Positions 9,796 through 25,789 of a stretch of 64,000 nt of DNA are shown one piece after another. Location: contig CAVRCJ010000015.1 of assembly GCA_963719515.1 (NCBI GenBank), forward strand, positions 100,435 to 164,434, in the 5' to 3' direction. The position numbers were made by a program, and so were the translations under genes. Origin of the DNA: an uncultured cyanobacterium. Lineage in GTDB: Bacteria > Cyanobacteriota > Cyanobacteriia > CAKZMO01. Below the pieces are notes generated by a model. The model was not told the DNA's origin and made no database searches. It worked only from the letters and a program-made list of their open reading frames with translations. Position 1 is the first letter of the stretch, and every line of letters begins with the position of its first letter.

Positions 9796-10027
9796 GGTAT
9801 TTCTCTTATGTTGCGTTCCGTAATCGGTAATGTGGAGAACCGTTTTACGGGTAGGCTGACGACATCACGATGACCAGCCAAGGGTTGCGCTAACTGCCGT
9901 CAAACGCAGCTTTTTCCTATGGCGTGAGCATAGCACCTGCGAGCAATGCGGTTTGATACGATTTGAGCAATGTTGTCTAAACCTTGTCTAAGCTGCAGCT
10001 TAGCTACTAGACAGGAAGCCCCGCGCT

Positions 10028-10210
10028 CTACCCGTCAGGGTGAGCGTCGGGATGAGAGTCGCGGTCGTCGATGGGGCTCAATGCCCCGGAGACGGCCAAA
10101 CTTCGGATGTACTCCCTAAGGACATCGTTGATAGTTCTTTCGGTCATCTCACAATACTTGTCAAGATGCTGCTTTTCTCTGTCAGCGGCTCTAATAGTTA
10201 TTTGCTGCAT
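10028..10210 (-). CDS. Small ribbon-helix-helix (CopG-like) protein inside the IS
   Basis: QITIR beta-strand followed by EKQHLDKYC and RTINDVLREYIRSL helices. Divergent from tnpB. Confidence 0.7.
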   Translation of the reverse strand: MQQITIRAADREKQHLDKYCEMTERTINDVLREYIRSLAVSGALSPIDDRDSHPDAHPDG

Positions 10211-10243
10211 GTCGTTCTGATGTCAATATGCTATCATTATTGC

Positions 10244-11440
10244 ATGAAAGTCACTTATCAGTACAAGTTGCGTCCAGCGGCTGAGCAAACGGTTACCATG
10301 ACCCGATGGCTAGATAGGCTTCGGGCACAGTACAACTGGTTGCTGGCTGAGCGATTCGACTGGTGGGAGATGAACCGCTGTTCGGTCAACGCCTGCCCAC
10401 TCACCTGTAGCCTTGCGCCACTCAAAGATAATCCTAATTACTGCAGCCAGAAGGCTAGCCTAGTACCTCTCAAGCGAGAGCGACCCTGGTACAAAGATTT
10501 GCATTCGCAGGTACTCCAGGAGGTGACGAAGCAGGTAAAGCAGACGTTCGAGCGTTTCATCAAAGGTGATAGGAATGGTAAGCGTAGCGGCAAGCCTCGG
10601 TTCAAAGGCGCGGGGCGCTACAGGACGTTCACGTTCCCGCAGATGAAACCTGACTGCATCGATGGAAGTCGTATTACCCTGCCTAAGATTGGCCAGGTGA
10701 AGCTAATCCTTCATCGCCCGATACCTGATGGGTTTACTGTCAAAACGGCCAAGGTGACTCGCAAAGCAGATGGTTGGTATGTGAGCCTGTTACTGGAAAA
10801 CAATGCCGTTCCGATGCTTACTCCGGATGTCGATAGGGCTAAGTCTGTCGGTGTTGACGTTGGGCTGAAGGATTTCTTGGTTACCAGTGACGGTGAGAGC
10901 GTTCCTATCCCTCAGTTCTTTCGACGCTCAGAGCGGCAGCTATCCAAGCTGCAGCGGCAGCTATCGAGACAGAAGAAGAGCTCTAACCGCTGGCGTAAGC
11001 AGGTGAATCGCATCGCCAAACTGCATCTGAAAATATCGCGTCAGCGTCGTGATTTCTTTTCTAAGGTGTGGGATTGGCTGTTTTCAAAGTACGATGTTGT
11101 CGCTCATGAAAAGCTCAACATCAAAGGACTTGCTCGAACCAGACTGGCAAAGTCAATCGCTGATGCCGCATGGGGTACATTCTTGGAGATAGGCTCTTTC
11201 AAAGCCGCGAAAGCTGGAAAGATGACCATCGCTGAGAACCCACGCGGAACCAGCATTGATTGCTCGGGTTGTGGTGAGCGGGTACCAAAGACGCTGGCCG
11301 ATCGGGTCCATAGTTGCCCGTCATGCGGCTTAACGATCTGTCGCGACCACAACGCGGCTATCAACCTATTGAATAGGGCTGTGGGACATCAAGCCCTTAA
11401 TCTCTCAGGAAATGTCTCAGCAGTAGCTGGGAGTCACTGA
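10244..11440 (+). CDS. tnpB: RNA-guided endonuclease TnpB
   Basis: YQYKLRP N-terminus, RuvC residues GVDVG, HEKL and RDHNAA, Zn finger CSGC/CPSC. Confidence 0.95.
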   Translation: MKVTYQYKLRPAAEQTVTMTRWLDRLRAQYNWLLAERFDWWEMNRCSVNACPLTCSLAPLKDNPNYCSQKASLVPLKRERPWYKDLHSQVLQEVTKQVKQTFERFIKGDRNGKRSGKPRFKGAGRYRTFTFPQMKPDCIDGSRITLPKIGQVKLILHRPIPDGFTVKTAKVTRKADGWYVSLLLENNAVPMLTPDVDRAKSVGVDVGLKDFLVTSDGESVPIPQFFRRSERQLSKLQRQLSRQKKSSNRWRKQVNRIAKLHLKISRQRRDFFSKVWDWLFSKYDVVAHEKLNIKGLARTRLAKSIADAAWGTFLEIGSFKAAKAGKMTIAENPRGTSIDCSGCGERVPKTLADRVHSCPSCGLTICRDHNAAINLLNRAVGHQALNLSGNVSAVAGSH

Positions 11441-11482
11441 GGAAGCCCGCGCTGTATGCGTAGCATCAGCGTCGGGAGGATG

Positions 11483-14400
11483 TCACGCCGACCCATCGAC
11501 GACGCGCTTCAGCGCTATCCAAAATCGGCTCCCTTGCCCCAGCACTGACTCGACGCCTACCCGGCCGCCCATGCGCTGGACGCCCCGCTTAACGATAGAT
11601 AGCCCAATCCCGGTGCCGGCATAGACCTCAGCGCTGTGCAGTCGCTCGAAGGGTTTGAAGATGCGCGCTTGATGTCGGGGGGAAATGCCAATGCCGTTGT
11701 CCTCAACCCAGATCCGCACGTACTGTACATCTGTCTCGCAATCCCTCGACGCTGTGGGAACATCAGCCCAGATTTTAATCTGCGGCAGCGTGCCCGGTTC
11801 AACAAACTTCAAAGCGTTGCGAATCAGGTTGTTTAGCACTTGCTCTACGACGCTGCGCTGAACGTAAACCATGGGAAAGTCTTGGCCAACTTCAACCGTA
11901 GCTTGAGCGACCCGTAAAGTGGGCTCTAGAGCAATTAAGACTCTCTTCACGACAATACCTGCATCAACACGCTGCAGATGAATCTCAGACCGCCCTAGGC
12001 GACTGTAGTTCAGCAGGTCTTGAATCAGCGTATCTAAAGTCTCAGCAGAGGTGGCCATGCGGCGGATATACTCGTGGCCTAAATCATCAAGCGCAGAGCC
12101 GTAGTCTTCTTCCAACACTCGCGCAAAGCCTTGAATCGCCCGTAATGGCGCCCGCAAGTCATGGGCAACGGAGTATGAAAAAGATTCTAGCTCCAGATTG
12201 GCTTCCTCTAGCTTCTCAGTCCGCTCCTGCACACGCTGCTCTAGAGTGATGTTGAGCTCGTGAAGCTTCTGCTCACCCCGATTGCGGACAATCGCCGCTG
12301 CCAGGCAGTTGGTGACCGCCTGCAAAAAATTAACGTCATCTTGAGTAAAGTCTTGAAGTCGGCGGGAATGCACGCCTAAGATGCCGAAGGGCCCCTCATT
12401 CCCTCCAATAATGGTGCTCATGCCGCTAATGACCTGGTGCTCAATGAGCAGGTCCGGTCCGGTAAATCGAGGCTCCCTGCGCAGATCCTTGACCACGACG
12501 GGATGTTGAGATGAGAGCGTGTAGCCTGCTTGGGAGTCCCCCTCGCTGCTAACTGTCGCCTTGCCGACGAGACCAGGCTGCCAGCCTACGCCAGATCTCA
12601 GCAGCAGCGCCTGGCCATCGGGCAATAGCTCGAGCACTTTGCAGTAGTCTACGTCTAGGCTAGCCGCAAGCATCTGAGTTGCTTGATCAAACAGCGCGTC
12701 TAAACTCAGTCCCGATAGCGCGGTCTGACTCAGCTGTGCGACAACCGCCTGCTGCTCTAGGCGACTGGCAAGCGATGCCTCGGCCTGCTTCTGCGCTGTC
12801 ACATCGGCAGCCATGGAAATCACGAGCCTGGCGCCACTATCAATTTGGCCTAGAGGCGCTGAGCTAAACAGCCAGGTCCGCCGCTCGCCGCCCTTAGTTC
12901 TCACCTCAAATTCGCCTTCATCAACCCGTCGGTTAAGGTCATAGAGGCGATTGATCCAGTCCAAAACGTCGCTTTGCTGTTCACCGTAGGCCCGCTCTGT
13001 CCAGTCGCTCAAGGTCTGTAGCTCGCTGGCCTCATATCCCGTAATGTCGGTTACCGTTCGGCTCAACCGAAAGATTTCCCCGTCTTCCCCGTGAATGATG
13101 ATGGGGAAAGGGGCTTCGGTGACCGCCCGCCGAAATCTCGCTTCGCTCTCCCTCAGCTTTGCCTCTGCCTGCTCGCGCTCCCCAATCTCCTGCTGCGCCT
13201 GCTGATAGAGCATGGCCTGCTGAACAACTAGGCTAATCTGCGTTGAAAGCTGCTTTAAAGATTTGATTTCAAGCGGCTGCCACTCGCGAGGCGCTCTGCA
13301 GTGATGGGCAATGAGCAGTCCCCAGACCTCAGTGCCCTGCAAGATGGGGACAACCAAGTTCGCTTTGACCTGCAGTGACGCTAGAAAATCGACGTAGCAC
13401 GGGGTAAGCTCACCGCTGTGAATATCGGGAATGACTTGCAGCTGTCCGGACTTGTATTGCTTAATATAGCTGGCCGACAGGCAGGGATCGCAGAACGGCA
13501 GGCTTTGGAGAGAATTCCACTGGGCATCCACCGATTCAGACAGGACAACGCCATCGTCGGGCGTCTGAAGCTGAAAGATGACGACCCGATCGGTCTGCAG
13601 GAACGCTCGCACTTTACTCACGGCGCTCTGCAGCAGTTGGCTCAGGTCTAACAGCGGCAGATCGCTGCCCCCAACGGACCATCTCCGAATCAATTGAGTG
13701 ATCTCCATCGCTAGCCGCTCAGACTCCAGCATCCGGTAGCGCTCGATATCAGCTTGCTTAGACGGCGTGATATCAGCGACCGTACCCAGCATCCGCCCCA
13801 TCGGGCGATCGCCATCGGGGTAAAATCGACCCTTACTGCTGAGCCAGTGGATAGAGCCGTCTGCCCAAACGGTGCGAAACTCTATATCGCACTGGGTTTG
13901 GTTTTGCAGAGACCGCCGGACAGCCTGCTGCAGGGCGGCACGGTCTTCTGCATGCACCCGCTTTAAAAGTGCGCGGTAGGTAGACAGCACCTCTCCATCA
14001 GTTAGCCCCAAGAATGTGCTGGCCTGCCCCGAGTAGAGCAGTCCGCCGCTTGAGCGCCACTCCCAGGCGCCCATTTGGGACGCGTCCAAGGCAAGCCACA
14101 GACGCTCGTTACTTTGCCAAAGCTGCCGTTGCAGGTTTACCTTCTCGACGGCCTGCTCGATGCTGCGCTGTAGCGATAGCGGCGTAATTTGACCCTTAAC
14201 TAAATAATCTTCTGCCCCCGCTTTGAGCGTCTGCGCGGCTAGGAATTCGTTTCCCTGACCGGTGATCATGATTAGCGCGGGCATTTGGTCTTTCAGCTGT
14301 ACTTTGAGTTCAGTCAAGAACTCCAGTCCGTCACAGTCGGGTAGACTGTAGTCCAGCAGCACCACATCAGGTTGAGCCTGCTGGCACAGCGCCAGCCCTA

Positions 14401-17906: not shown

Positions 17907-17974
17907 ACCTTTGCTAAAGTTCTGCCCCATTTCGGGAGATGTCTGGTGTATTAGAGGTAGCTACTGGCTGTTAG

Positions 17975-18423
17975 CTAGTTCGTGAAAGCCCCGCGCTGTA
18001 TGCGCAGCATCAGCGTCGGGATGTAAGCGAGCGAGTCGAGGTGCGCCCTTGACTGGATGCCGAAGGCGGCAATTAAGGGCAGCGCCGAGGCGAGCAAAGG
18101 GTACAATTGAACCAAGCTCAAACTATTTCATGGCGGCGGCCTGCTATCCTGACACAAACGTACAGCCCTTAGCTGGTGAACAGTGCAGACGGTAGAAAAC
18201 GTAGCTGGAAATTGAATACTCGTCACTGTCTGGGGTTGGTCATTGCCTGGACATTAAACAAATCGCCTGTCGATGGGATCTAATCGGGGTTGCACGGCTT
18301 GCTGCGTAACTAGACAGGACCAGATGAAGCAGGAAACCTTCTTGCGCGGCATCCATTAAATTGTGGTGCGTGAGCCAAGAAGCCCACGCTCTATCTAAAA
18401 GATGAGCGTCGGGAGTATGTCAC
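17975..18423 (+). mobile_element. ORF-less IS200/IS605 mini-element (TTAG/TCAC type), 449 bp
   Basis: TTAG at 17971-17974, left hairpin gccccgcgctgtatgcgcagcatcagcgtcggga, right hairpin gaagcccacgct...agcgtcggga, terminal TCAC 18420-18423. Confidence 0.82.
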
Positions 18424-24435: not shown

Positions 24436-25401
24436 ATGACCACATCTATGCCAAACCCTAACCTCAGCGTCCATCACACCATCCATTCCCACCAGTCTCA
24501 CTGCGGCTGGGACCATTCCCTGCCGCCGCAGCTGACGATCGCCCCCGGCGAAACGGTGGAGATGGAGCTTAACGACGCCTCGGGGGGGCAGCTTACCCTA
24601 GACTCCACCGTGGCGGATGTCGACGCCTTCGACTTTGGCCGCACTAATCCGGTCACCGGCCCCATCTATATCGAGGGGGCTGAGCCGGGGGATGTGGTGA
24701 AGCTATTTATCCAGAACTTCAGCCCCTCCGGCTGGGGCTGGACCGCCATCTTCCCCGACTTCGGCCTGCTGGCGGACCAGTTCCCCGACACCGCTCTGCA
24801 GCTCTGGCGCTACGACGTAACGGCTAAGGGGGCGATCGCCGAAGGTCTGAGCGCCCGGATCCCCCTGAAGCCTTTCGCGGGCACCATCGGTCTGGCCCTG
24901 GCGGAACCGGGTCACCACAGCGTGGTGCCGCCCCGGCGGGTAGGGGGCAACATGGACATCCGCGACCTGTCTTCGGGCAGCACACTGTACCTGCCGGTGG
25001 AGGTGGCCGGGGCGCTGCTCTCCATCGGCGACAGCCACGCGGCCCAGGGAGATGGAGAGGTGTGCGGCACGGCCATCGAGAGCCCGATGACGGCGGTGTT
25101 CACTATAGACCTGCTCAAAGACCACCCGATAAAATACCCCCACTTCGAGACCGCCGGTCCCGTCACCCGCCACCTAGACGCCAAGGGCTACTACGTCACC
25201 ACGGGCATCGCCCCCGATTTGATGATCGCTACCCGGGAGGCGGTGATGGCCATGATCGACTGGTTGGGTAAGGCCCACCAGATGGACGCCGCTGAAGCTT
25301 ACATGCTGTGCAGCGTCTGCGCCGACCTGAGGGTCAGCGAAATTGTAGACAAGCCCAACTGGGTGATGTCCTGCTATTTGCCCAAAATCGTGTTTGAGTG
25401 A
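24436..25401 (+). CDS. Acetamidase/formamidase family protein
   Basis: NPVTGPIYIEGAEPGD, GGNMD and GDSHAAQGDGEVCGTAIE. Confidence 0.92.
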   Translation: MTTSMPNPNLSVHHTIHSHQSHCGWDHSLPPQLTIAPGETVEMELNDASGGQLTLDSTVADVDAFDFGRTNPVTGPIYIEGAEPGDVVKLFIQNFSPSGWGWTAIFPDFGLLADQFPDTALQLWRYDVTAKGAIAEGLSARIPLKPFAGTIGLALAEPGHHSVVPPRRVGGNMDIRDLSSGSTLYLPVEVAGALLSIGDSHAAQGDGEVCGTAIESPMTAVFTIDLLKDHPIKYPHFETAGPVTRHLDAKGYYVTTGIAPDLMIATREAVMAMIDWLGKAHQMDAAEAYMLCSVCADLRVSEIVDKPNWVMSCYLPKIVFE

Positions 25402-25789
25402 CATCCTCCCGACGCTGACAGCAAGCTGTACAGCGCGGGCTTCCTCAGTGACTCCCAGCTATTGCCGAGACATATCCTGAGATAGGTTTATACTCCGCCT
25501 GATGCCCCACGGCAGAGTTTTGAATTTTCATCTCCGCGAGGGAGGATACGCACTATGTGTCGCAGATACATTTGCAAACTGAGGAACGGGTGACTTGCAG
25601 CTTTCGCCTACGGGCCCGTCACACTCTTTGCGGGGTGTATCACCTTGCTATCTCTATCATACCAACTGCTAGCCTCAGCGCTGAGCGCACTATCCGCTGT
25701 GCATCATTTTGCGGGCGCACTTCGGCTAGCGCGACTCTCATCCCGACGCTCACCCTGACGGGTAGAGCGCGGGGCTTCCTGTCTAGTCG
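25398..25789 (-). mobile_element. ORF-less mini-element with ends of the 10004-11486 TnpB element, 392 bp
   Basis: First ~60 nt are nearly identical to 10004-10062. Last ~120 nt are homologous to the tnpB 3' end/right end through ggatgTCAC. CTAA (=TTAG) at 25790-25793. Confidence 0.9.

Follow-up and report, generated by a model that had tools for sequence, protein, structure and literature searches.

A conserved RNA domain precedes the predicted omegaRNA in a gene-less, IS605-derived element of cyanobacteria

RESULTS

A mobile element without genes lies at the end of an acetamidase gene

Within the window, i.e., the whole 64,000-nucleotide stretch of DNA from an uncultured cyanobacterium that was analyzed, an acetamidase/formamidase gene (PF03069; 24436..25401, plus strand) has its TGA stop inside the right end of a gene-less element of 392 bp that occupies 25789-25398 on the minus strand. 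The element starts directly after TTAG and finishes with the right end GGATGTCAC, and its boundaries are exactly those given in a preliminary description of this DNA (25398..25789). Read along the minus strand, it consists of a left end (25789-25730) with a subterminal hairpin (25778-25740), a spacer upstream of the promoter (25729-25665), a predicted extended -10 promoter motif TGGTATGAT (25664-25656), a 132-nt structured leader of the predicted transcript (25649-25518) that begins 6 nt downstream of this motif, and a 120-nt omegaRNA core (25517-25398) made of stem 1 (25517-25493), stem 2, the right-end hairpin, and the TCAC end. The left ~60 nt, already described as nearly repeating the start of a tnpB element in the same window, are identical to 10004-10063 at 59 of 60 positions.

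Genome-wide, we found 53 copies of the element, a multiplicity that had escaped the preliminary description, 391-393 bp long and 96.4-100% identical, all of which end in TCAC, while both the flanks and the guide differ from copy to copy. Given this copy number, near-identity, and diversity of flanks, the element belongs to a recently active family and is not a lone relic. All 53 copies follow TTAG (47 of them TTTAG), which amounts to insertion at a fixed target without duplication; the TTAG at this locus (25793-25790, minus strand, host DNA just beyond the left end) is the predicted TAM, based on the 53 copies and on 15/15 full-length cognate tnpB elements. The subterminal palindromes are IS605-related, terminal inverted repeats are absent, and no protein-coding gene is present, with stops in the frames and no match to TnpA or TnpB. 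The element at 25789-25398 is an IS605-derived, non-autonomous PATE. One of its copies (G000:C6:428067-428458) sits inside the tnpB of another IS605 family.

The spacer is loosely common to the mini families B, D, E, and F of the genome, and an nhmmer profile built on it found 76 places in the genome, every one inside a mini-element. It is perhaps in part a decayed tnpA tail, as a tnpA-tail remnant is visible at the spacer position in a homologous locus (L218). A 1,307-nt contig from a DNA run, which aligns to window positions 25606-25785, carries the left end, the promoter, and the first ~45 nt of a leader variant, followed by ~1,100 other bases; it may represent either a longer parent or an insertion of nested type.

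Insertions avoided reading frames: frames of at least 150 codons were interrupted by 7 of 53 copies, compared to 898 of 1500 sampled TTTAG sites (p 6e-12), and 10 of the 46 remaining copies lay at a stop codon, compared to 52 of 602 in the background (p 0.008). Because the target carries a stop on both strands and the right end read backwards gives TGA, insertion at a gene's stop spares the gene in either orientation. At this locus, the TGA that terminates the acetamidase gene is the one supplied by the right end (25398-25401).

The host DNA past the right end (25397-25382, minus strand) forms the predicted 16-nt guide, as read from the sequence under the rule, given in passages of PMC10278001, that the guide comes after the right end. 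The guide had been proposed to be antisense to the 3' end of the acetamidase mRNA; the 16 nt after TCAC are indeed as described, but their complementarity is a by-product of the insertion site, since each of the 53 copies has its own guide. A TTAG followed by a 12-nt guide match elsewhere in the genome was found for 0 of the 53 guides, and for 3 of 53 at 10 nt. No joint across an empty site was present in four DNA runs, and four genus relatives gave no match to the end of the acetamidase gene, so that no empty site was recovered.

Transposase and nuclease are available in trans

The same genome encodes the proteins that such an element would borrow. In the window, a cognate tnpB-only element of 1,483 bp (10004..11486, plus strand) contains tnpB at 10244-11440, whose product is a TnpB (PF01385, PF07282, and PF12323) with the RuvC residues D205, E289, and D368. 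The genome contains 20 long matches to this element; the frame is intact in 17, and TTAG directly precedes each of the 15 full-length matches. Among the tnpB families of the genome, only this one has the same RNA core as the mini-element; a catalytically intact cognate TnpB with the same core and target motif is thus encoded, as expected for an omegaRNA. Furthermore, tnpA is present in three copies with the same ends, in open frames with the HUH motif and the tyrosine. Judging from the copy number and from IS200/IS605 biology, the element would be mobilised by TnpA. The tnpB frame in the window is open from the left end onward (466 aa from a GTG at 10040; window 10040-11440), and its upstream part overlaps an antisense remnant of a tnpA tail.

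The core folds as an omegaRNA

The preliminary description had noted that the right ~120 nt parallel the 3' end of tnpB, and this held: they correspond to the last 111 nt of the tnpB element, with 88% identity over the last 85 nt. Stem 1 differs in sequence from that of the tnpB copy, with its pairing and loop kept, and is followed by stem 2 and the right-end hairpin. The loop of stem 1 can form a pseudoknot with the last 8 nt of the element, and across six cores 30/30 cells of this pseudoknot are paired, with one pair changed on both sides. A 3' end at the right end of the element, a subterminal hairpin, and a pseudoknot with the stem 1 loop are characteristic of omegaRNAs, and every feature of PATEs and omegaRNAs that could be checked from sequence was found in the element.

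Among homologues, the core measured 115-120 nt in 16 of 17 cases and 139 nt in the one with a repeat expansion. Two types of core were found behind the leader, and the second type also ends tnpB genes in two genomes. For the D-type elements, no tnpB with a matching core was present among the matches listed in five carrier genomes, and one was present in two others. A set of 93-bp elements after TTTAG (L183, L184, L188, L189, and L192, in G050 and G022) has its start immediately after the TCAC inside omegaRNA stem 1 and its end at the right end; these are apparently mobile D-type core fragments that use stem 2 as their left end.

A predicted promoter precedes the leader

A -10-like hexamer was found upstream of 16 of the 18 leader homologues, compared to 2.9 on average (maximum 10) in 1000 shuffles, with a pattern that was picked post hoc, after the data had been seen. 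The motif at 25664-25656 was absent from the output of a strict -35/-10 scan. By pattern, the left-end hairpin was found in 12 of 18 homologues, 10 of which follow TTAG. A weak sigma-70-like site (9/12; 25467-25494, plus strand) lies within the core and reads antisense through the leader. The predicted transcript has the same strand as the TnpA substrate; therefore, the strand cannot separate RNA structure from DNA structure.

The leader is a covarying structure of ordinary stability

Matches of covariance models (CMs) and covariation define the leader as a conserved structured region. It contains a long irregular stem, domain 1 (25641-25565), which is supported by a strand-swap test of its basal helix and by RNAalifold. 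The basal helix P1 pairs 25641-25636 with 25570-25565 and is followed by P2/P3, with a 2-nt bulge, and by a nearly invariant apex (25620-25587). Downstream, hairpin H2 (25564-25547) was seen in this sub-group only, and hairpin H3 (25544-25532) is conserved, all on the minus strand. The hairpins named in the preliminary description were borne out in part: of gtaggc-gaaa-gctgc, a 3-bp stem is conserved while the loop varies, and gacggg/cccgtt folds here (p 0.82-0.97), but only three of its pairs survive in homologues.

Three sequences from the genus yielded a fold with 106/106 cells paired, one compensatory pair, and one paired double insertion, and RNAalifold on them agreed on most helices, while their covariation did not exceed the shuffle control (179/500). 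We then considered 18 distinct leaders from 15 genomes, which fall into four sub-groups with 45-67% identity between groups and in which the genome under study is represented by its C5 copy, with one base different. In a model-fitted alignment, which is biased toward the model and holds related, non-independent sequences, the paired cells amounted to 92.7%, with changes on both sides in 13 of 27 pairs, a level reached by 0 of 500 shuffles. P1 has four unrelated, mutually exclusive sequences, whose strands pair only within their own sub-group. Upon swapping its strands across sub-groups in a structure-blind alignment, the mean pairing energy changed from -6.8 kcal/mol for own strands to -2.5 kcal/mol for swapped ones, and 0 of 214 cross pairs reached the own mean; a control window gave -1.5 versus -0.7. 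The same swap for P2/P3 (-7.0 versus -5.3) was not discriminating.

In the apex, GAY-CGACCCGUAGGC, GCYGCAAGUC, and CCCGUU are nearly invariant in the 14 long forms, with a freely variable terminal loop, and the four short forms retain just GAC-ACCCAUAG and CGYUUCC. The leader by itself was no more stable than shuffled sequence (z -0.7), and the mean folding z of the 18 leaders was +0.2 as RNA and +0.3 as DNA. Stability does not exceed that of shuffles; the evidence for structure is the covariation. Judged by these patterns of sequence change, the leader is a selected fold with conserved unpaired bases and is not unusually stable.

The leader occurs in seven families and only in front of omegaRNA cores

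With BLAST and exact patterns, the leader was confined to its own genus (3/17 and then 3/401 genomes in two scans; two genus relatives), and 11 further matches of a 401-genome scan, 21-39 nt long, were at chance level and rejected. A contig collection added nothing (10 matches, of which 8 in unrelated phyla and 2 at loci already counted), and metagenomes gave 0 matches plus 1 at chance level, viral sequences 0, and plasmids 0. With a CM built on three sequences, the search of 141 genomes gave full-length matches at 31-50 bits in six of them, which belong to four other families, and a ten-sequence CM found 7 more genomes in 160 further searches of hand-chosen genomes, a set without small picocyanobacterial and many other genomes and with about 25 repeats of earlier searches. 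In total, the leader was present in at least 16 of ~276 distinct cyanobacterial genomes, from seven families, with 24-42 candidates scored per genome. Weak CM matches in G085 (17 bits) and G002:C14 (20 bits) lay outside elements and were dropped.

OmegaRNA stem 1 adjoins the leader in 18 of 18 loci with downstream sequence, and tnpB is absent from all of the loci. Conversely, the leader CM found nothing significant at 20 tnpB loci in five carrier genomes (best 14 bits, E 0.21), and none at 38 other loci except another copy of the same element. That the ~130 nt after the extended -10 do not resemble tnpB, as first noted by eye, was upheld by blastn, which gave no match to 99 tnpB-like regions and 21 further tnpA/tnpB loci; the exceptions were a mini-element copy inserted in another tnpB and a 22-nt match of one homologue (E 0.28). 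In Rfam 15 (all 4227 families), the leader had no match at E<=10 in the element. HEARO and IS605-orfB are included in Rfam, and neither these motifs nor RAGATH-18 matched the element.

These results bear out the initial proposal of an omegaRNA with an extra 5' RNA module: the core pseudoknot covaries, and so does the module, which is conserved and belongs to no Rfam family. An interior derived from tnpB or host coding DNA, or one without covariation among copies, had been named as what would speak against it; what we found, upon collecting homologues, was a conserved covarying structure in at least 16 genomes.

Other mini families carry other leaders

In the same genome, the leaders of mini families B/F and E are unrelated to the 132-nt leader, and that of family C is weakly related. 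Family B has 18 copies (among them G000:C3:610786-611235, C1:7104-7547, and C4:101934-102370, with one copy at about window positions 17974-18423). Its leader motif comprises a small hairpin, a stem with 2-nt and 1-nt bulges, and an AAACGUA/GUGAACA loop, without an Rfam match; this motif, unrelated to the 132-nt leader, is conserved in at least five genomes from four other families (L105, L107, L108, L124, and L104). A likeness of this leader to the hatchet ribozyme failed when tested, as the Hatchet model had no match in the genome, nor did Rfam support likenesses to group II domain V or group I P9. Further gene-less elements with a promoter and other leaders of 120-150 nt were L020/L141 (G008), L113 (G314), L120 (G114), and L098 and L102 (G000).

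Family C (G000:C3:566939-567363 and five more copies; also L144, L145, and L146) has a third leader type, which covaries in four sequences (6 of 26 pairs) and whose 5' end is weakly like the 132-nt leader; the family C core has a RAGATH-18 score below threshold. A model of C sequences only ranked the 132-nt leader first in the window (16 bits, E 0.15). An A-only model scored 9/9 C loci at 7-10 bits, below a 15-bit match in a tnpB frame, and the ten-sequence leader model found no family C locus. Kinship between the two leaders is thus weakly indicated.

DISCUSSION

In its construction, the element is a PATE with a predicted trans-acting omegaRNA, a known kind of element, and what is new is the RNA domain ahead of the guide, which is uncatalogued and well supported. 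PATEs were defined in Haloquadratum (PMC3119063), and the text of Meers et al. (10.1101/2023.03.14.532601) reports that PATE-like elements of Geobacillus stearothermophilus encode an omegaRNA, which TnpB is proposed to use in trans. As described in these two papers, PATEs share with the present element the absence of terminal inverted repeats, IS605-like subterminal palindromes, the lack of target duplication and of genes, and homogeneous copies. Unlike them, the element is more than a pair of fused ends, as it carries a dedicated predicted promoter and a 132-nt RNA domain untraceable to tnpA or tnpB; the text of the two papers, supplements aside, mentions no such domain. Stand-alone omegaRNAs of OMEGA systems, which according to passages of PMC10691335 act in trans in a role called unknown there, are likewise mobilised guides without a nuclease that have a compatible effector in the same genome; the extra conserved 5' domain sets the present element apart, none being mentioned in those passages. 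In the full-text literature, judged largely from titles and passages and with supplements, patents, subscription papers, and ISfinder outside the scope, we found no description of the leader.

For the TnpB of ISDra2, 116 nt of RNA are reported to stay bound, with the pseudoknot present, and nucleotides -231 to -117 to be unneeded for cleavage (main account in PMC10097598). For AmaTnpB, passages of PMC10278001 describe that RuvC trims the 5' RNA to 126 nt. The present core, with its ~116-120 nt, stem 1, and pseudoknot, resembles both, and in both the ~115-130 nt on the 5' side are trimmable. However, the 5' part in those systems, as portrayed in these accounts, is tnpB coding sequence, disordered and dispensable, whereas the 5' part of the present element is non-coding, with covariation and a conservation of its own. 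RAGATH-18 reRNAs (RF03064; PMC11061315, as excerpted) are a TnpB-type guide motif, of which we saw weak sub-threshold matches in the cores of C-related mini families. IStrons, as outlined in 10.1101/2023.11.20.567912, are likewise IS605 elements with an added structured RNA; the present element has no match to a group I intron model, and its insertions avoid reading frames (7/53 versus 898/1500).

We consider it moderately probable, with the model taken as a whole, that the element is a stand-alone guide-RNA gene built as a PATE, in which the leader is a stabilising or loading precursor domain that is trimmed by TnpB. TnpA from the copies with tnpA and tnpB would peel the element off as single-stranded DNA and paste it after TTAG. 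The extended -10 motif suggests transcription from the element's own promoter into a precursor of ~250 nt plus the guide, the last 120 nt of which would bind the cognate TnpB in trans, by analogy with Meers 2023. After excision, the guide may direct TnpB to cut the empty site, upon which recombination would restore the element (as proposed in the text of 10.1101/2023.03.14.532601). The leader would take the place of the translated tnpB mRNA body that accompanies a guide encoded in cis, and, in what is the weakest step of the model, may keep the untranslated RNA stable and competitive for TnpB from other loci. It would do so through its long stem and an apex that makes conserved protein or tertiary contacts, before TnpB trims it off.

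The main argument for a protective or loading role is the restriction of the leader to gene-less elements. Counted in favor of the model are the 53 copies with the same ends and target, the intact TnpA frames, the intact tnpB in 17 of 20 matches, the covarying pseudoknot, the constant position of the leader before a core without tnpB, the P1 swap, the two core types, and the 0/53 guide matches, as well as the core length of 115-120 nt in 16/17 homologues, because it matches the 116 nt bound by ISDra2 TnpB in the PMC10097598 account. On the other side, the leaders fold no better than shuffles, which is weak for a purely protective stem, and in this sub-group the first 8 nt at the 5' end are unpaired. 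Since the ISDra2 region 5' of -116 is described as dispensable (PMC10097598, main account), the leader need not matter to TnpB. Also counted against the model are the unrelated or weakly related leaders of other mini families in the genome, the inseparability of RNA and DNA structure by strand, and the five D-type genomes in which a tnpB with a matching core was unseen among the listed matches.

Several other functions can be set against this model. We deem it rather unlikely that the leader is an independent cargo RNA, or an aptamer that binds some other protein (TnpA, a host RNA-binding protein, or RNA polymerase), which rides the guide transcript and aids the spread of the element. Near-invariant unpaired residues across seven families, the modular joining to different cores, and the several unrelated leaders that fill the same slot would fit such cargo, yet the leader was never seen apart from an omegaRNA core at the 18 loci, and no complementarity to tnpA or tnpB mRNAs was found. 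A latch in cis is an unlikely reading: leader 25586-25578 would pair with core 25449-25441 (and 25549-25543 with 25478-25472), open stem 2, and keep the guide off until TnpB trims the leader. The precedent is an inhibitory mRNA segment of AmaTnpB, which can inhibit cleavage, as proposed in passages of PMC10278001, via pairing with the scaffold. In this copy, the helix has nine perfect pairs, 17/17 leader/core pairs could form a duplex of 6-9 bp at this place, and the position ranks at the top of 1,085 window pairs when own and swapped pairings are compared (statistic 4.2), although this comparison was post hoc and involves two core types only, and 2 of 80 null maxima reach 4.2. Moreover, the same leader strand is already used in the leader's own P3, the latch helix has p ~0.06 in this copy, and less than one latch pair is expected in 16 of 17 folded transcripts, such that we regard a leader-core latch as a weak hint.

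It seems improbable that the fold acts in single-stranded DNA, where it would compact the peeled strand, join the ends, and raise excision or insertion by TnpA. In the established IS200/IS605 mechanism, TnpA uses the hairpins of just that strand which the predicted transcript represents, and the element has 53 copies compared to 20 for the tnpB-bearing one; however, the domain always starts a few bases, or one hairpin, behind the -10 box, conservation is absent from the DNA that separates the left end from the promoter, and the folding z as DNA (+0.3) is no better than as RNA. A self-cleaving ribozyme of a new class, maturing the 5' end of the guide without TnpB, as the preliminary description had suggested examining, is very improbable: it lies at the guide's 5' end and has a conserved apex, and nothing more specific speaks for it, whereas no Rfam ribozyme matched in the element or in four homologous loci, and Hatchet matched nowhere in the genome. 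The short variant is missing half of the invariant apex, with stem P5 and the GCAAGUC strand gone, and yet spreads, and TnpB itself is reported to trim 5' extensions (passages of PMC10278001). Scarcely tenable, finally, is the reading of the leader as filler DNA or as what neutrally remains of a lost gene, for which the folding z near zero and the resemblance of the last ~12 nt to what precedes the core in some tnpB genes could be cited; covariation, with compensatory changes at 50-60% identity and conservation in seven families, largely refutes it, and there is no coding match to tnpA or tnpB.

RNA 5' of the TnpB-bound core has been regarded as dispensable, and here this slot holds a structure kept for long across seven cyanobacterial families and found only in elements that need a TnpB borrowed in trans. 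In a bolder and rather doubtful extension, gene-less cyanobacterial IS605 elements would have evolved into dedicated guide-RNA genes, with an active and so far undescribed RNA device as their 5' domain: an aptamer for TnpB or TnpA, a latch that holds until TnpB trims it, or a new ribozyme. Such a device would let a nuclease-less guide out-compete guides encoded in cis, which would bring these elements closer to Cas12 systems with their separate long RNAs. The leader offers a defined, mutable handle on guide stabilisation, loading, or gating in trans, with a possible use in expressing TnpB guides separately from the nuclease.
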